Shown here piece by piece: positions 2,828 to 36,062 of a stretch of DNA of 40,480 bases; position 1 is the first letter of the stretch, and each line of letters starts with the position of its first letter. This DNA comes from a virus (taxonomy: Duplodnaviria > Heunggongvirae > Uroviricota > Caudoviricetes), in IMG/VR virus record IMGVR_UViG_2718218098_000005, positions 1 to 40,480 of that record; one strand, written 5' to 3'. The notes beneath the pieces were generated by a model, which saw only the letters and a program-made list of their open reading frames with translations, searched no databases and was not told the origin of the DNA. The position numbers were made by a program, and so were the translations under genes.

Positions 2828-5800
2828 TCAGCTGATACTGATGCCTGCGGTGGCTTTCTTCATCACCACAACCAGCAAATCACTGATACTTGCTGTGGGA
2901 TACCAGTCATTTACCAGCCATGCTGACACCGAAAACTCCAGCGTCATGTGACCGTGACCGGCAGGCATATCAATAACGCCACTGTAAATCAGCGTATTAT
3001 CCAGCGCGGTACGGTTATAAATTTCAGCACCGTTTTTCCGCACTATCAGACGGCATGAGGAGTAAATATCAGTATGCTCTCTCTCATGTTTAGCGCCGCT
3101 GAATGCCACCGCCGGAATAACAATCTGCCGGTCAAACGGCTGATTGTCATAAACCCTGACGGTAATGGTCCCTGATGGCCACCGTTCCGGTGCACGGGAG
3201 TCCCGGGGGAAAGCTTTGCCCACGGTTTTAACGAGATCACCTTCAATCTGGTTCGCGGACAGTTTTCCCAGAACCCGACAGTTCTCGTTAATCGTGACGT
3301 TGTTGAGCGTCCCGGCGTTCGCATTCACGTTACCGCTGATATCCGCATTTTTCGCCGTCAGCCGCCCATCCGGTGTCAGGGAAAATGCCGGAGGATGACC
3401 ACCACTGGTAATGGTGGGGGCCGTCAGGCGCTTCAGGAACACGTCGTTCATGAATATCTGGTTGCCCTGCGCCACAAACATCGGCGTTTCATTCCCGTTT
3501 GCCGGGTCAATAAACGCGATACGGTTAGCGGCAACCAGAAACTGACTCACCGTGTCCTCCATGCTGAGGCCAATACCCGCGACATAATGTCTGCCGTCTC
3601 TGGTCTGCTCAATTTTGACGCCCCACATGACATTCCATTTATCACTGGCGTCCTTCCACGCTTTCGAAAACTCCTCCAGTCTGCTGGCGTTATCCTCTGT
3701 CAGCTCGACTTTTTCCAGCAGCTCCTTGCCGAGATGGGATTCGGTTATCAGGCCTTTGAAAAAATCCAGGTAACCTTCGGCATCATCGCTCGCCCGACCG
3801 ACAGCCTCCACGAATGTCGATTTGCCGACGGTGTTCACACTGCGGATATAAAAGTAATAATCACGACCCGGTTTGATATTGATACTGGCGGCTATCCAGT
3901 ACAGCGCCGTACCAAGATAGCGGGCTGTGGTTTCAACCTGCCTGATATCCGCAATCCGTTTTTCCGAGAACCAGAACTCAAACTGTACCGTCGGATCATA
4001 AACCGCAAGATGCGGCGTGGCGGTTATCTGAAAATAGCCCGGCGTCAGCTCAATCCTCGACGGTGCTGCCGGTGCGGCAATCCGGAACGATACCGACGCC
4101 GGATCGCCCCGCTGCCCCCACGCATTTACCGCCCGGACCGTCAGCGTGTAACGCCCCAGCGCCAGCTGCCTGAAGCGGTATGTGGTTTCCGTCGTCCTGG
4201 CTGTACTGACCAGCCGCTCACTGCCGTCGTCCGCTGTTACGGTCAGGCGAAGCATAAAGCTCACCCCCTTCACCACCTTCGGTGTGTCCCAGCGCGCCAG
4301 CACCTGATATTCCCCGCTGTCTGCAGTGACTTCTGCGGTCAGGTGCTGCACCGCTGGCGGCGTGACACCATTCACCGTGCCGCTCTGGTCGCCGTCAAAG
4401 TGCGCCCCGTTATCCACGATGGCCTCTTTTTCCGGTACATGCTGCACGGCGGTGATGGCATACGTGCCGTCGTCGTTCTCACGGATACTCACGCAGCGGA
4501 ACAGGCGCTGGCGCAGCGTCGGCAGCTTCAGCCCCCACACGCTGTATTCAGCAACGCCGTCAGGAACCCGGCTCACTTTCACCTTCACGCCGTCGGTGAC
4601 GGACTGAACCTCCACGCTGACCGGATTGCCATTTCCGTCAACCAGGCTTATCAGCGTGGTGCCGGAGGATGGCAGCGTGATTTCACGGTCGAGCGTCAGC
4701 GTCCGGGTCTGGCTGTTCACCGCCAGCACGCGACCACCGGTGCTGATACCGGCATAGTCATCATCGCAGATTTCAATGACATCGCCCGGTACATGGCGAA
4801 GCCCTTCGGCACCCACGCTGAAGTCCACGGTCTGCGTTTCCAGCAGCTCCGTTTTAATCAGCCACAGCCCGGCGCGGTGCGCCTGCCCCCGGCTGGTACA
4901 GCCAAAGGCATCCATCTTCGTGACGTTACGACCGTAACGGGCAATGGCCTGCGTGTCCTCCACAAGCTCTGTCGCCGTCTGCCAGCCGTTGTCCGGGTCA
5001 ATCCAGTTCACCTCAACGGCATTATGGCGGTCCTTCAGGGCGCTGAAGCTGTAGCGGAACGGCGCGCCATCCTCCGGCATCACCACATTACTGCGGTTAT
5101 AGGTCCACACCTTATCCGACGGCCGGTCCTGCACGAACGTCAGCGTCTGCCCGTTCCATACCGGCATACAGCGCATCGCCGAGCAGAAATCACTGAGCAC
5201 ATCCCACGCCTTACGCTGCGTGGTCAGCCACGCATTACAGGTGATGCGCGGCTCCGTGCCGCCAGAGCCGTCCGGCACTGACTGGTCGCAGTACTGGCCG
5301 ATGGCGTACAGCGCCCATTTGTCCACGTCCGCCGCGCCAAGACGTTTCCCCATACCGTAGCGCGGGTGGGTCAGCATATCCCACAGACACCAGGCCGGGT
5401 TGTCACTGTATGCCGGTTTGAGGGTGCCGTCCCAGATACCGCTGTATTGCCGTGTCTGCGGGTTATAGTTCGACGGCACCTGCAGAATACGCCCACGGAA
5501 ATGGTAAGTGCGGCTCACCTGCTGGCTGCCGAACTGCTCCGAATCCACCTGCACGCCGACCAGTGCCGTGTTCGGGTGGCATTGTTTCACATCGATGATT
5601 TCGGTGTATGACGACCAGAGCGTTTTGTTCTGCAGCTGGTCTGTGGTGCTGTCCGGCGTCAGCCTGCGCATCCGGATATTAAACGGGCGCGGCGGCAGGT
5701 TACCCACCACCACCGAGGCCAGATACTGTGAGGTGGTTTTTCCCTTAATGGTGATGTCTTTTTCCGTCACCCAGCCACCGTTACGTTGTATCTGAACCAG

Positions 5801-6211
5801 CAGGCGGACTTCCGACGGATTCCGGTCCCCCTTTGAGGTGGTTTCCACCAGTGCCTGCACACCAAAGGTCAGGCGCAGACGGTCGATGTTTGCAGACGTG
5901 ATGGTCCGGGTAATCGGCGTGTCGTACTTCACTTCCGTACCCAGCACCGTCTCGGAGCCGGAGGATTCAAATCCCTCCGGCGGTGTCTGCTCCTGCTCAC
6001 CTGCCCGGAACACCGCCGTGACACCGGAAAAACTGGCATGTCCTTCCCGGTCCAGCACCGGCGTACCGTTCAGAAACACGCTTTTTAATCCGTCCACCGG
6101 ACCATAAACCGGCCCTTCGCTGATGGCATCAATCACACTCAGCATCTGGGATGATTTCAGGTTATCCTTCGCTTCACGCGGGGTATGCCCCTTACTGCTG
6201 CCTTTACCCAT
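2828..6211 (-). CDS. J: Tail tip / host specificity protein J, 1127 aa
   Basis: Full-length match by recollection to lambda J ([20 protein letters not shown]... through C-terminal receptor-binding region). Confidence 0.95.
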
Positions 6212-23990: not shown

Positions 23991-24065
<75 letters not shown>

Positions 24066-24068
24066 ATA

Positions 24069-24144
<76 letters not shown>

Positions 24145-24146
24145 AC

Positions 24147-24223
24147 TGGACCGCCACCGGGGACTCGAACCTCGCACACTCAACTTAAAGTGTTGACGCT
24201 CTTTCCTGATGAACTAGTAGCGG
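24147..24223 (-). tRNA. tRNA-like, probable anticodon TTT (Lys) with C33
   Basis: Acceptor CCGCTAC/GTGGCGG, 5-bp anticodon stem TCAAC/GTTGA, loop ACTTTAA, T-loop TTCGAGT, CCA encoded. Confidence 0.5.
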
Positions 24224-24224
24224 T

Positions 24225-24300
24225 TGGTGGCCCTGGCTGGATTTGAACCAGCGACCTGGCGATTATGAGTCGCTCGCTCTCACCACTGAGCTAAAGGGCC
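24225..24300 (-). tRNA. tRNA-Ile2-like (anticodon CAT; ileX/ileZ type)
   Basis: Strong similarity by recollection to E. coli ileX; anticodon loop CTCATAA; CCA encoded. Confidence 0.8.
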
Positions 24301-27388: not shown

Positions 27389-27544
27389 TTACTCCTCAGG
27401 TTCGTAAGCTGTGAAGACAGCGACCTCCGTCTGGCCGGTTCGGATTCGTACCTCGCAGAGGTCTTTCCTCGTTACCAGTGCTGTCACTATGACGGTTAAA
27501 CAGATGACGATCAGGGCGATTAACATCGCCTTTTGCTGCTTCAT
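27389..27544 (-). CDS. hokD: Hok/Gef family type I toxin (HokD/RelF-like, 51 aa)
   Basis: MKQQKAMLIALIVICLTVIVTALVTRKDLCEVRIRTGQTEVAVFTAYEPEE matches HokD by recollection; single TM + conserved Cys. Confidence 0.85.
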   Translation of the reverse strand: MKQQKAMLIALIVICLTVIVTALVTRKDLCEVRIRTGQTEVAVFTAYEPEE

Positions 27545-27732
27545 AGCCTGCTTCTCCTTGACCTCTCGGTCCGTAAGAGGCAATCTATATGTGACGAGCA
27601 TATAGGGGCCTCACTTCGATTTATAGTCGGGTGGGGCTTTTATCTATCTGCCTTTGGTGTTCATGCCTGAGGCAGATAGCCTCAAGCACCCGCAGCAATT
27701 CTACTTAACTCTCCTTTTCCCGCAAACCGTTT

Positions 27733-32971: not shown

Positions 32972-33494
32972 ACGAACCCCTGGCAGACATTTGTTTATCT
33001 GCAAAGTAATATTGATATTGCTGACGATACGCATGCTTGAAAGCAATAGCTTTTTCTATAAGCTCGTCAGTCTCACGTTCCACAACAGATGGATCCGCAA
33101 AAAGCAGCCCGGACTCCACCACATCGCCATATTCTTTGTTTAACCCGGCGATCATGTACGTAATGCTTTTTCCGTCAGTAATTTCACAATACAATCTGAA
33201 ATCGCTGATCCGGATAGCCTCCATAATTGCCGGAATCAGCGCCGTGAATTTTTCCCGCTTATCCCTGGTGTCGATAGCTTTCCAGCGTTCGAATATCTTC
33301 ACCCTGTTAACGCCCAGCGCCCGTTGATCAACCTCGCCATCATTAAACGTGACGCGTTGAACATCGATGTTCGGGCGTTCTTTCAGAGCCCAGAATGCTT
33401 CCGTGATTAATATCGTCGCCTGCTCCTGTGTCATTCCTGGTCGGCATACCCAGGCATCCAGAGCCTCACAAACCTGTTCAGGGATGATTTTCAT
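32943..33494 (-). CDS. YdaT-like regulatory protein (cII-position analogue)
   Basis: 183 aa directly downstream of Cro-like dicC with 17-nt overlap; assignment by position. Confidence 0.45.
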   Translation of the reverse strand: MKIIPEQVCEALDAWVCRPGMTQEQATILITEAFWALKERPNIDVQRVTFNDGEVDQRALGVNRVKIFERWKAIDTRDKREKFTALIPAIMEAIRISDFRLYCEITDGKSITYMIAGLNKEYGDVVESGLLFADPSVVERETDELIEKAIAFKHAYRQQYQYYFADKQMSARGSYEYRCTTMG

Positions 33495-33705
33495 TGTTCA
33501 ACCGCCCCGCCCGCTTTGCCTTACGATATTCGTCATAAACTTTGGGGTCGTACTGAAGTTCCCCACCGGATGCCTCTTGCAGGCGCATCGCGCGACCTTC
33601 AGGAACCAGTTCCCCCCATTGAGAAACAGCAGATGGATCAACACCAGCAGCTTTCGCTACTTTGGCTTTCGTCCCATAAAAATTAATTACGTCTGATTTA
33701 AACAT
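33478..33705 (-). CDS. dicC: DicC/Cro-like small HTH regulator (75 aa)
   Basis: ATG 33705 with GGAGGGG upstream; ..LVPEGRAMRLQEASGGELQYDPKVY..; divergent from dicA. Confidence 0.75.
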   Translation of the reverse strand: MFKSDVINFYGTKAKVAKAAGVDPSAVSQWGELVPEGRAMRLQEASGGELQYDPKVYDEYRKAKRAGRLNNENHP

Positions 33706-33782
33706 CACCCCTCCAAAGTTGAGTTTTCTCAATAGTAATCACTCAAGGAATCTCAAGTCAAGGGTTATTAAGATATCTAAAT
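33706..33782. promoter_or_regulatory. Divergent dicC/dicA promoter-operator region
   Basis: 77-bp AT-rich intergenic with palindrome TTGAG-TTTT-CTCAA (33719..33732); dicA ATG has no obvious SD (possibly leaderless). Confidence 0.6.
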
Positions 33783-34190
33783 ATGAACGAGAAAACTTTA
33801 GGTCAACGAATTAGAGAAAGACGCAAACAGGTTGGTTTAAGTCAAAACGATTTAAGCAAAGCCGCTGGCGTATCTGGCTCATCAATTTCACTATGGGAAA
33901 GCGACCATACAGCCCCGCGCGGGCAAAATTTGCATCGCCTAGCTGAGGTATTGCAATGTTCACCAACTTGGATACTGTTTGGTGACGAGGATAAAACACC
34001 AGATCCACCAGTTGCACTCAACAGCGCCTTAGACTTATCGGAAGATGAGTTGGAGATGTTGCGATTGTATCGCGCACTTCCAAAATCAGAGCAGCAAGCA
34101 CAAATCAGCGAACTCCGTGCCCGCGTTGAGAATTTTAATCGCCTATTCACCGAGCTACTAGAAGCTCGCAAACGTAACAAACATCAGTAA
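33783..34190 (+). CDS. dicA: DicA-like HTH (XRE family) repressor, 135 aa
   Basis: N-terminal XRE HTH (LGQRIRERRKQVGLSQNDLSKAAGVS..); ..LQCSPTWILFGDEDK.. matches DicA by recollection. Confidence 0.85.
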   Translation: MNEKTLGQRIRERRKQVGLSQNDLSKAAGVSGSSISLWESDHTAPRGQNLHRLAEVLQCSPTWILFGDEDKTPDPPVALNSALDLSEDELEMLRLYRALPKSEQQAQISELRARVENFNRLFTELLEARKRNKHQ

Positions 34191-34251: not shown

Positions 34252-34301
34252 TTGAGTTTTCTCATTAAAAACGCTTGACCAACATTCATGAGAAAACTAA
34301 A
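34252..34301 (+). promoter_or_regulatory. Second operator-like site overlapping a candidate rightward promoter downstream of dicA
   Basis: TTGAGTTTTCTCA (34252..34264) and inverted copy GAGAAAACT (34290..34298) flank TTGACC-17 nt-TAAATT. Confidence 0.4.
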
Positions 34302-34383
34302 TTACCACCCATCAAGACACCGCACGGTGTTCTCAGCAAACAGTTCCGCTACCCGGCGTTAAGGGGAAACAGAGGATTTCTCA

Positions 34384-34740
34384 GTGGGCGAACTCAAACA
34401 TCAGAATGGAAGGTATCCTGGGATCAGCAAAGAAACAGCAATGGCGCTTTATATTGATATCAGCGCCATTGCCGGACAGGTAAGAATGATCAGAGCGGTA
34501 ACTAAACGGTATGCGCCTTTACTTCAGAAAGTCTCTGGTGAGTGCGCCGAAGATATCGTCAACGATTTCGTCATCGAATTGCGAGGACTCATCTTCAGTT
34601 ACAAGGTGACCACAGTTTTTGCAGATGGCTCCCGCGAAACTGTCAGAGCCCTGCGGTTTAAAGGATGTGTCAAAGACTTCGCCACCACATTCTGGGCAAG
34701 AAAACTTGATTGTATTCATAACCAATTTCCTCTCGAGTAA
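34384..34740 (+). CDS. Alternative candidate ORF (118 aa, GTG start) on operon strand
   Basis: GAGGA 7 nt upstream of GTG 34384; co-directional with dicA operon; no domain recognised. Confidence 0.3.
   Translation: MGELKHQNGRYPGISKETAMALYIDISAIAGQVRMIRAVTKRYAPLLQKVSGECAEDIVNDFVIELRGLIFSYKVTTVFADGSRETVRALRFKGCVKDFATTFWARKLDCIHNQFPLE
34519..34719 (-). CDS. Candidate C4 zinc-ribbon protein (66 aa); mutually exclusive with plus-strand ORF 34384..34740
   Basis: CPECGG...CKNCG motifs; GAGAGGAAA 6 nt upstream of ATG 34719; antisense to dicA operon direction. Confidence 0.4.
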   Translation of the reverse strand: MNTIKFSCPECGGEVFDTSFKPQGSDSFAGAICKNCGHLVTEDESSQFDDEIVDDIFGALTRDFLK

Positions 34741-34811
34741 CAGACCTCTCAGAGGATACCACCTCGCCTGACGTGGTTAAAAGCAGGCAACGCTAACCAC
34801 GAGGAGCCGAC

Positions 34812-35030
34812 ATGCAGAAACGAGAACCCGTCATCATCGCGCCAGACTATACCGATGATGAACTTTATGAGTGGATGCGCCAGAAAATTAATGCAGCGCA
34901 GGATCTGAAATGGGCCAATGAAGCCAGGGCTAAGCAGGCTGAAAATCTGTCCGCTCTGGAGCAGGATATCACCAATCTGGAAAAAGCAGCGGCATTAAGC
35001 ATTGCCAGAATGATTACATACCCACGTTAA
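34812..35030 (+). CDS. YdfC-like small protein (72 aa)
   Basis: GAGGAG 5 nt upstream of ATG; size and position match ydfC of the dicA-dicF-dicB operon; sequence identity unverified. Confidence 0.6.
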   Translation: MQKREPVIIAPDYTDDELYEWMRQKINAAQDLKWANEARAKQAENLSALEQDITNLEKAAALSIARMITYPR

Positions 35031-35052: not shown

Positions 35053-35460
35053 ATGGAATTTAAAGATTTACCAAAAGAAATCCAGACAATTGCTGCAACG
35101 GCTCTCGGTGATAGTCTGGTGAAAATTGACCCGGCATACACCAAAAAAGAAACCATCGATAATATGGTTCGTAATGTGCGCAATGCTTTTTCTGGGCTAT
35201 ATGGTCCTGATAATCAAAAGCAGGAAAGCGATGTTAATAAACGGGTAATTTCTGTTTGCGTGAATGGCCATGTTCTTTCATCAATCAAAACAGAAACAGC
35301 GACAGTCTTCGATTGCCTTTGCATTGTACAGAGCCTTGTTGATGCCCTGTTTCGTTCAGTGAATTTAGAAAATGATGCAAATCTGCGAGGGCGCACAATA
35401 GCACATCCATATGCACATACTTTAGGCTCTGTGGATATCAAAGATCCCACAAATCTTTAA
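35053..35460 (+). CDS. Hypothetical protein (135 aa)
   Basis: GAGG 6 nt upstream of ATG; no domain recognised. Confidence 0.6.
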   Translation: MEFKDLPKEIQTIAATALGDSLVKIDPAYTKKETIDNMVRNVRNAFSGLYGPDNQKQESDVNKRVISVCVNGHVLSSIKTETATVFDCLCIVQSLVDALFRSVNLENDANLRGRTIAHPYAHTLGSVDIKDPTNL

Positions 35461-35671
35461 TGAAATAGTTAACGCGAATTGTACTTGCTCTTTCAGTTGC
35501 TTTCAGAATACGCGTTGAAACTGCTGGCGGTAATTTGGTATTCCATTTATTAAAATCATGCCCGGGAAAGTACTCTTCGAAAATACTTTTAACTGCAGAC
35601 TCGCCTATTGAAATGCTGCTTACCATGCGATTTTGATAAAGGCATTTAGCAATAAGAGTTGATTTTAACAT
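35438..35671 (-). CDS. Hypothetical protein (77 aa), convergent with and overlapping 3' end of 35053..35460
   Basis: ATG 35671 with AGGAGGG upstream; 23-nt 3' overlap with plus-strand gene. Confidence 0.4.
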   Translation of the reverse strand: MLKSTLIAKCLYQNRMVSSISIGESAVKSIFEEYFPGHDFNKWNTKLPPAVSTRILKATERASTIRVNYFIKDLWDL

Positions 35672-36005: not shown

Positions 36006-36062
36006 TTTCTGGTGACGTTTGGCGGTATCAGTTTTACTCCGTGACTGCTCTGCCGCCCTTTT
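36006..36062 (+). ncRNA. dicF: DicF small RNA (ftsZ-targeting sRNA)
   Basis: TTTCTGGTGACGTTTGGCGGTATCAGTTTTACTCCGTGACTGCTCTGCCGCCCTTTTT matches E. coli DicF by recollection incl. terminator hairpin; located just upstream of dicB. Confidence 0.85.

Follow-up and report, generated by a model that had tools for sequence, protein, structure and literature searches.

Which strand of a short stretch of prophage DNA codes for protein – the one, the other or both? The question arises at positions 34384–34740 of a 40,480-nt sequence, virus record IMGVR_UViG_2718218098_000005 (hereafter 'the window', meaning that whole stretch), which is a complete lambdoid prophage of Escherichia coli of the Qin/DicA type. 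There, an open reading frame (ORF) of 118 codons on the plus strand encloses, on the minus strand, a second ORF of 66 codons whose product carries the cysteine motifs of a zinc ribbon. The reading that we favour, at somewhat better than even chances, is that these are two genes on opposite strands, nested in a single cassette at the head of the early operon.

Annotation of this DNA is divided, and the ambiguity of coding strand that the original prediction pointed out is a real one. RefSeq, through the Prokaryotic Genome Annotation Pipeline (PGAP), annotates the minus ORF as an 'ECs_2282 family putative zinc-binding protein' – the name also given to the identical locus in E. coli M19 – whereas 14 GenBank phage records (those of the PPompW phages, vB_EcoS-640R1 and others) enter the plus ORF of 118 amino acids as a hypothetical protein and have no entry for the minus gene. 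The same plus ORF is represented in PHROGs v4 as phrog_21318, a 99-residue profile beginning at the window's ATG 34441, and there too the zinc-ribbon gene of the opposite strand is left out. For E. coli O157:H7 NE92, RefSeq annotates the plus ORF of 99 amino acids (WP_001240336.1), the zinc-ribbon ORF in that strain having a GAA-to-TAA change at codon 14. With RefSeq, the GenBank phage records and PHROGs naming different strands of one DNA, pan-genome and prophage comparisons will split or miss these genes.

Both ORFs are as originally described: the minus ORF, with its CPECGG and CKNCG motifs and strong Shine–Dalgarno (SD) sequence, is nested in a GTG-started plus ORF that has an SD of its own (AGAGGA, 7 nt upstream of the GTG; 34371–34386) and runs in the operon direction, being the first ORF behind a DicA-type early-left promoter. 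The minus ORF extends from ATG 34719 to a stop at 34519–34521 (the ORF listing takes it back to a TTG at 34725, which gives 68 amino acids) and encodes MNTIKFSCPECGGEVF...AICKNCGHLV..., the motifs being CPECGG and CKNCGH. It lies wholly inside the plus ORF, and the two frames are codon-aligned (34717 − 34384 is divisible by 3), with plus codon position 1 pairing with minus position 3 and the two middle positions paired with each other. Only a TTA, CTA or TCA codon can produce an antisense stop in such a register, which is why a long antisense ORF over a 66-codon gene is common; if synonymous codons are drawn at random for the zinc-ribbon protein, the plus frame stays open with a probability of 0.16.

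In a single sequence the nested pair is not beyond chance, and the case depends on comparative data – here, 12 lineages with DNA and 50 unique sequences, the most distant members of which (P0038 and P0039) came from an exhaustive profile search. A homology search of both translations, suggested originally as a means of telling them apart, was run and does not discriminate: both have database relatives, a consequence of conserved DNA and of gene callers that choose either strand, and the 23 relatives of the plus ORF are explained by the frequent choice of the plus frame by gene callers.

The zinc-ribbon gene

The minus-strand gene is almost certainly real. Its product matches the NCBIfam model NF047912 at 57.4 bits (cut-off 37; E = 1e-15; residues 4–59 on model positions 1–56 of 60), which by profile score makes it a member of a named but uncharacterised family, and homologues occur in prophages of E. 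coli, Citrobacter, Klebsiella, Enterobacter and Serratia, down to 47% identity. The ORF is exactly 66 codons long in 12 of 12 lineages with DNA (all intact copies), across which there is no variation in the ATG, the stop position, the four cysteines (C8, C11, C33 and C36) or the GH that follows the second knuckle; the cysteines are invariant also in aligned members at 47–52% identity. An SD of the form AAGGA/GGAGG stands at identical spacing in all lineages, and the stop is held throughout opposite the rare plus-strand leucine codons TTA and CTA.

The pattern of substitution points to clear purifying selection on this frame. Pairwise ratios of non-synonymous to synonymous substitution rates (dN/dS) are 0.18–0.35 for the zinc-ribbon frame versus 0.29–0.79 for the antisense frame, and amino acid identity is higher in the zinc ribbon than in the plus frame in 65 of 66 lineage pairs. 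Among 80 E. coli loci from IMG/VR, transitions are seen at 6 of 132 non-synonymous versus 14 of 66 synonymous sites (Fisher p = 6e-4; the same test on ydfC in the same loci gives p = 0.06). On a parsimony tree of the 50 unique sequences, substitutions in the overlap number 195, 56 and 118 at plus codon positions 1, 2 and 3, with the peak at the zinc-ribbon wobble position; the classes of change that are non-synonymous for the zinc ribbon run at 0.22–0.41 of the neutral reference, zinc-ribbon non-synonymous changes being depleted 2.5- to 5-fold.

The gene apparently ends in an intrinsic terminator of its own, a stem-loop with a T-rich tail that sits where the plus ORF encodes its N-terminal part. 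Its predicted fold has an energy of −31 kcal/mol (z = −3.2); over 12 lineages, 81% of cells are paired, versus 25–62% with the partner slid; and five pairs have changed on both sides, a covariation score reached by none of 500 shuffles.

These data bear directly on the possibility that the plus ORF is the only gene here and the zinc-ribbon ORF a chance antisense frame with an incidental cysteine pattern. Such a view would suit the operon direction of the plus ORF and its confidently predicted fold, as well as the poor AlphaFold2 (AF2) model of the zinc-ribbon protein (strands at residues 3–5, 15–17 and 31–33 and a helix at 50–64, with a predicted local distance difference test score, pLDDT, of 54), which also counts against a pair of genes; and the plus ORF is retained where the zinc ribbon is broken, in prophages with the nonsense allele E14*. 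A peak of substitution at plus position 1 is, however, the reverse of what a plus-only locus should give, and together with the depletion of zinc-ribbon non-synonymous changes, the invariance of the cysteines, ATG, SD and stop position, the covarying terminator and the above-cut-off NCBIfam match it effectively excludes this possibility, to which we would concede only the slightest chance.

The E14* allele itself (GAA to TAA at codon 14) is found in 17 of 90 IMG/VR loci, of the L068 type, and in L189 (E. coli O157:H7 NE92), and its sole effect on the plus ORF is a change of Phe to Leu; prophages that carry it are natural zinc-ribbon-null, plus-ORF-intact variants. Together with a second allele in L092, it makes two independent zinc-ribbon nonsense alleles in the E. 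coli population.

Although the protein has a zinc-ribbon-like motif, it is, judged by profile scores, a member of no Pfam family: 33 matches to Pfam zinc-ribbon families (Zn_Ribbon_TF, Zn_ribbon_3, DUF5795 and others) all fall below cut-off, the best scores being 23.4 bits for DUF5795 (cut-off 27) and 21.8 for Zn_Ribbon_TF (cut-off 29). Its N-terminal part is weakly similar to the start of the 194-residue phrog_4852 (2e-9). A match to a Lar-like restriction alleviation protein (phrog_6422) has E = 0.0068, with no stretch significant alone beyond the CxxC, and among the anti-phage defence profiles of PADLOC-DB the best was PDC-M14A (15.9 bits, E = 0.003), short of membership. A profile search of genome contigs for the family returned only two spurious short matches (in a Bacteroidota and an archaeal metagenome-assembled genome), a metagenome scan yielded no additional lineage type, and a literature search found no paper mentioning ECs2282.

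Two further ideas about this ORF were rejected. It does not look like a type I toxin, the protein being acidic and not hydrophobic; and an extension by frameshifting into the minus +1 frame past the stop is unsupported, that frame having no start and running, in L004 and L009, into a stop after 13 codons. Its ratio of non-synonymous to synonymous polymorphism (pN/pS) past the zinc-ribbon stop is low, at 0.51, and it shares its wobble positions with the plus frame.

The opposing plus-strand frame

Is the plus ORF, then, a gene as well? We consider it likely, on comparative grounds, that it is translated and selected, most clearly in its N-terminal part. The earlier expectation that only one of the two ORFs would be real thus finds no support: the minus gene is under selection, and the plus ORF combines conserved openness, start signals, periodicity outside the overlap and a confident predicted fold.

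Each of these features has to be weighed against the possibility that the zinc-ribbon gene stands alone and the plus ORF is merely its shadow – open by chance and through codon choice, and mis-annotated in the GenBank phage records, PHROGs and some RefSeq genomes. Openness by itself is easily had in a register with so few stops: the codon-aligned antisense frame is open in 32% of 66-codon windows in the long ORFs of these phages, and the structural region of the window holds a 628-codon ORF (3395–5281, plus strand) antisense inside one of 1127 codons (2828–6211, minus strand), which shows the reach of shadow-type antisense ORFs here. It is less easily had repeatedly. The plus frame has no internal stop over the overlap in any lineage or in any of the 50 unique sequences, including the distant L105, L108, P0038 and P0039, at a per-lineage probability of only 0.05–0.32, and among about 80 E. 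coli loci there are no nonsense alleles of the plus ORF. Start signals count against a shadow as well: 11 of 12 lineages have, 28–45 codons upstream of the zinc-ribbon stop, a start codon with an SD duplex (−4.9 to −10.9 kcal/mol).

Outside the zinc-ribbon coding sequence, the frame can be judged by itself. Over the 84 nt from the conserved start region to the zinc-ribbon stop, substitution events number 73, 58 and 110 by plus codon position (χ² p = 1.3e-4), or per site 3.93 events at position 3 versus 2.34 at positions 1 and 2 (Mann–Whitney p = 6.5e-5; p = 1e-4 at site level without the terminator stems), and this coding periodicity of the plus core is located at 34441–34518. Transversions per possible change are 0.39 for non-synonymous and 1.22 for synonymous changes – an approximately 3-fold depletion – the plus-frame omega is ~0.47, and L105 has, shortly beyond the overlap, an indel of 3 nt (one codon) that leaves the frame intact. 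No other open frame accounts for the periodicity, as the sole other frame with the same wobble positions there is the minus +1 frame, startless and closed in two lineages. Within the overlap, slower evolution of the zinc-ribbon wobble sites would be the expected sign of a second constraint, and a modest sign of this kind is seen: these sites average 2.95 events versus 3.93 for the plus wobble sites outside the overlap (p = 0.02), and the depression lies in the ribbon core (2.47 in codons 1–49 versus 4.35 in the tail).

For the 99-residue core, AF2 predicts from 14 sequences three helices, a β-hairpin and a long C-terminal helix (pLDDT 85; predicted template modelling score 0.69), which counts against a shadow, and the helix-like pattern is kept down to 38–39% identity. 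The match to phrog_21318 has E = 1.2e-65 (residues 20–118 on profile positions 1–99 of 99), and that of the Klebsiella member P0031 6.9e-36. A search for structural neighbours of the model found none, and no PADLOC-DB profile matched the plus ORF.

Several results nonetheless weigh against two genes, some of them also in favour of a shadow. Inside the overlap, the plus frame seems constrained at best weakly: selection there tracks the zinc-ribbon frame, and changes synonymous for the zinc ribbon and non-synonymous for the plus frame proceed at 0.84 of neutral (95% confidence interval ~0.65–1.08); for the E. coli clade their rate equals neutral (14/61, versus 15/89 and 8/44 outside the overlap). 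A ratio of 0.53 between changes non-synonymous in both frames and those non-synonymous in the zinc ribbon only was dropped as evidence for the plus frame, a phantom frame outside the overlap giving 0.54. In the E. coli clade alone, constraint on the plus ORF outside the overlap is not significant (p = 0.4; p = 0.17), and a test for stop avoidance, which has little power, was non-significant (third-position changes to A in 0 of 15 TCN/CTN codons versus 5 of 35 other four-fold codons; p = 0.30). The exhaustive profile search never found the plus-ORF family without a zinc ribbon opposite, which leaves its independent existence unproven; the AF2 confidence, built on 14 related sequences, is no proof; and, on the other strand, the zinc-ribbon gene's candidate promoter matches the consensus only weakly, and the promoter scan missed it.

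The N-terminal end of the long form fares no better. The GTG start with its SD is present, as originally predicted, but the 19 codons next to it look unconstrained – codons 2–19 after the GTG are the fastest evolving and without periodicity (22/17/17) – and the conserved part of the plus ORF, if it codes, is the one from ATG 34441. Taking both sides together, we regard a mere shadow as unlikely, albeit with a share of the probability that is far from trivial.

A different alternative accepts translation of both strands and denies the plus protein a function: ribosomes covering the first ~350 nt of the early transcript, over an antisense cassette that has been inserted there, would prevent Rho-dependent polarity on ydfC–dicF–dicB–exo. 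Start signals and openness that are conserved over an amino acid sequence only weakly constrained in the overlap would be consistent with such a role, as would an N-terminal length ranging from 93 to 174 amino acids between lineages. The 3-fold depletion of non-synonymous transversions outside the overlap and the helix-like pattern at low identity argue instead for constraint on the sequence itself, and the confident AF2 fold points the same way, which makes the alternative improbable.

The variable N terminus also takes other forms. In the Enterobacter-type lineage (L010/L011 and L110–L129), the plus frame is open for ~30 further codons (MSTSANRKTIKLPAGETFAPISNKCKSCGYVE...) and lacks the usual internal SD–ATG; in the Citrobacter type the open stretch upstream measures 118 codons and shows weak similarity (KTIK...TF). 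Longer forms of the plus protein may exist.

Two identities for the plus ORF were rejected. It is not a ydfA remnant, BLASTP having given no alignment. A lambda N-type antiterminator was considered since the plus ORF is the first after the early-left promoter; such proteins are recognised by an arginine-rich motif at the N terminus, and inspection of the N termini MALYIDISA, MMTTLRVDASA and MTVTTKQVRATLA found no Arg-rich stretch.

The cassette and its setting

The nested ORFs form a cassette of ~400 bp that opens the early operon, which is under repressor control (Table 1). The cassette is carried by 550 of 5426 complete E. coli genomes (~10%), and the complete genomes of five E. coli strains from mice match the segment 34200–34900 at 100%. 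The conserved block extends from the terminator tail (~34425) to GCCTG at 34788, the outer edge of the cassette, where homology between lineages begins; outside it the lineages diverge. Its orientation is constant: the long ORF shares the direction of the early operon, and the zinc-ribbon gene points the other way, to the immunity genes. In most phages the cassette lies behind PL; in L008 and L009 it is found behind cro, in the PR operon. The immunity genes DicA and DicC are matched in NCBIfam by NF007257 (238 bits) and NF007282 (167 bits), and ydfC is followed, in this order, by a 135-codon ORF, the small RNA (sRNA) DicF, dicB, ydfD and an exonuclease gene.

Table 1. Features of the nested locus and its surroundings, in window coordinates
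Feature	Position	Strand	Remarks
dicC, cro-like	33478–33732	−	Immunity region
dicA repressor	33783–34190	+	Immunity region
Operator-like repeat TTGAGTTTTCTCATTA	34252–34267		Repeat search; upstream of early-left promoter
Early-left (dicBp/PL-like) sigma-70 promoter TTGACC-17-TAAATT	34275–34303	+	Promoter scan
5' leader of early-left transcript	34310–34370	+	Alignment; near-identical to the leader before ydfA in K-12 Qin
Plus ORF, long form	34384–34740	+	118 aa, GTG start; first ORF of early-left operon; coding sequence in GenBank phage records
Predicted intrinsic terminator of zinc-ribbon transcript	34425–34473	−	Stem-loop 34437–34473, T-rich tail 34425–34436
Plus ORF, conserved 99-aa core (phrog_21318)	34441–34740	+	Starts at ATG 34441
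Zinc-ribbon gene, ECs_2282 family	34519–34719	−	66 aa plus stop; CPEC...CKNC, then acidic C-terminal helix
Zinc-ribbon SD GAGAGGAAA	34726–34734	−	7 nt upstream of ATG
Hairpin B CCTCTGAG...CTCGAGAGG	34729–34755		Between zinc-ribbon −10-like element and SD, which is the plus stop-codon region; by inspection
Candidate zinc-ribbon promoter	34753–34780	−	TTAACC, 16 nt, extended −10 TGgTATCCT (34753–34761)
Hairpin A GCCTG-N13-CAGGC	34766–34788		Outer boundary of cassette; by inspection
ydfC	34812–35030	+	3' of nested ORFs
DicF sRNA	36007–36058		Rfam, 76.7 bits

The −35 element of the early-left promoter is conserved with K-12 Qin, where it lies upstream of ydfA. The 16-mer at 34252–34267 recurs at 33719–33734, beside dicC and at its promoter, and an inverted copy at 34289–34301 overlaps the early-left promoter; the palindromic repeat TTGAGTTTTCTCA, 13–16 nt long, is thus present in three copies, and those at 34252–34267 and 34289–34301 are inverted copies that bracket that promoter. 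The three are candidate DicA operators of the phage; in K-12, dicBp, with lambda-like operators, is repressed 22-fold by DicA (PMC10448788). The leader that follows is found also in L097–L103 and contains the hairpins ACACC-GCAC-GGTGT and CCC-GGCGTTAA-GGG; other lineages have a different conserved leader element, AGTAGCC(A/G)CCCGAGGCG. These hairpins and elements could be antitermination or processing signals.

At the other end of the cassette, upstream of the zinc-ribbon SD, the motif GGTGGTAT(C)(C/T)T is conserved at the edge in 10 of 12 lineages, and we read it as the extended −10 of the candidate promoter. Other lineages have other stems at the place of hairpin B (CTTGG/CCAAG and CGGT/ACCG, by inspection), and hairpin A reads GCCGGG...CCCGGC in L105.

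If two genes are indeed nested here, the minus strand would carry a self-contained unit – the weak extended −10 promoter, the strong SD, the coding sequence for a 66-residue Cys4 zinc-ribbon protein and its own terminator – and, from the other side, the ORF that comes first on the early-left transcript (the dicBp/PL analogue, repressed by DicA) would read through the entire cassette. Its product would most likely be a protein of ~99–118 amino acids with an α/β fold (phrog_21318), under purifying selection weaker than that on the zinc-ribbon protein. In a lysogen, DicA would hold the early promoter off and the zinc-ribbon gene would be expressed; upon derepression, early transcription over the cassette would silence the zinc-ribbon gene, by transcriptional interference and RNA duplex formation, and the plus protein would be made. 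We infer such mutually antagonistic expression because the two units are convergent and fully complementary.

From there it is a further, tentative step, and one that we think has rather less than an even chance of being correct, to a switch that draws two proteins from one DNA: a zinc ribbon in the lysogen and, on derepression, a structurally unrelated α/β protein as the early operon's first product, mutually exclusive and functionally coupled (for example, as an exclusion or regulatory factor and its lytic counterpart). If true, the switch would be one of few bacterial or phage antisense overlapping pairs with selection on both frames across genera. As a working guess, the zinc-ribbon protein may be a lysogen-expressed accessory or exclusion-type factor, because its gene occupies a cargo hot-spot beside the repressor gene.

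The gap between repressor and cassette is such a hot-spot, its content differing by prophage: at L099 2031–2509, L101 2228–2705, L103 2057–2721, L012 4930–6084 and L105 3171–3578, the cargo includes PaaA2/ParE pairs, a HigB-type toxin with a helix-turn-helix partner, a 384-residue HSDR_N-domain protein and a YedD-like protein. In a prophage of Enterobacter hormaechei, the zinc-ribbon gene is directly preceded on its own strand by a SieB-family superinfection-exclusion gene (PF14163; L010 3323–3823).

Elsewhere in the window, a second small gene opposes the early-left operon (35438–35671, minus strand; 77 amino acids, RefSeq WP_000920491.1), overlapping by 23 nt the 3' end of the 135-codon plus ORF (35053–35460, phrog_1363). 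An Rfam match to the sok antitoxin RNA (27542–27691, minus strand; 107 bits) indicates a type I toxin–antitoxin locus of the hok/sok type in the prophage. Four clustered phage tRNA genes lie at 23991–24300 on the minus strand (ARAGORN: Gly-TCC, Thr-TGT, Lys-TTT and Met-CAT); Rfam at gathering threshold finds three of the four and misses Lys-TTT at 24147–24223.

Relation to known systems

The closest relative in gene order is the dicBF operon of K-12 Qin (dicA-dicBp-ydfA-ydfB-ydfC-dicF-dicB; PMC10448788), which resembles the present operon in DicA/DicC, the −35 of the promoter, the leader, ydfC, DicF and dicB. In K-12 Qin, however, the leader is followed by ydfA and ydfB, whereas here the nested cassette takes their place, with a plus ORF that has no similarity to YdfA.

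For the zinc-ribbon protein, the nearest named entity is NF047912, for which the minus ORF scores above cut-off; the family is a name only, with neither function nor structure attached. Its description is silent on an antisense ORF, and every member examined here lies inside a conserved one.

Genes of the sieB type offer a parallel in position. In lambda and P22, sieB is an autonomously transcribed accessory gene that opposes the early-left operon from a place between the repressor and the early-left genes. The zinc-ribbon gene is like it in small size, position, direction towards the repressor, a terminator of its own and a candidate promoter, but has no sequence similarity to SieB and lies inside an ORF of the operon that it opposes, whereas sieB lies between genes. 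Measured against the autonomous prophage units of the 'moron' type, the zinc-ribbon gene likewise has its own terminator; its promoter is a candidate only, a conserved weak extended −10-like element.

The known pairs closest in kind are the antisense overlapping genes of enterohaemorrhagic E. coli (EHEC) and Pseudomonas. In E. coli O157:H7 such pairs include nog1, ano, asa, pop and others (PMC5960689, PMC6294744, PMC7103648, PMC9927249). They share with the present pair a coding ORF fully embedded antisense in another, of which annotation pipelines retain one. The O157:H7 pairs are reported to rest mainly on RNA sequencing, ribosome profiling and phenotypes, and to concern young, taxonomically restricted ORFs; the present pair, by contrast, is known from sequence alone, and both its frames are conserved across several enterobacterial genera, each with its own start signals.

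This difference is what gives the locus its interest. Functional antisense overlapping genes in bacteria and phages are disputed, most candidates being young ORFs backed by expression data alone, and here the case is the reverse, the conservation of the pair extending over Escherichia, Citrobacter, Klebsiella, Enterobacter and relatives. The pair lies in a genetically tractable region of an E. coli prophage, for which the repressor, DicA, and inducers are known and natural nulls of one partner exist (E14* in O157:H7), and stops specific to one frame and synonymous in the other are easily designed (Ser TCN to TCA, Leu CTN to CTA). The locus makes a good candidate, and a testable one, for a nested antisense pair of genes that has been conserved.

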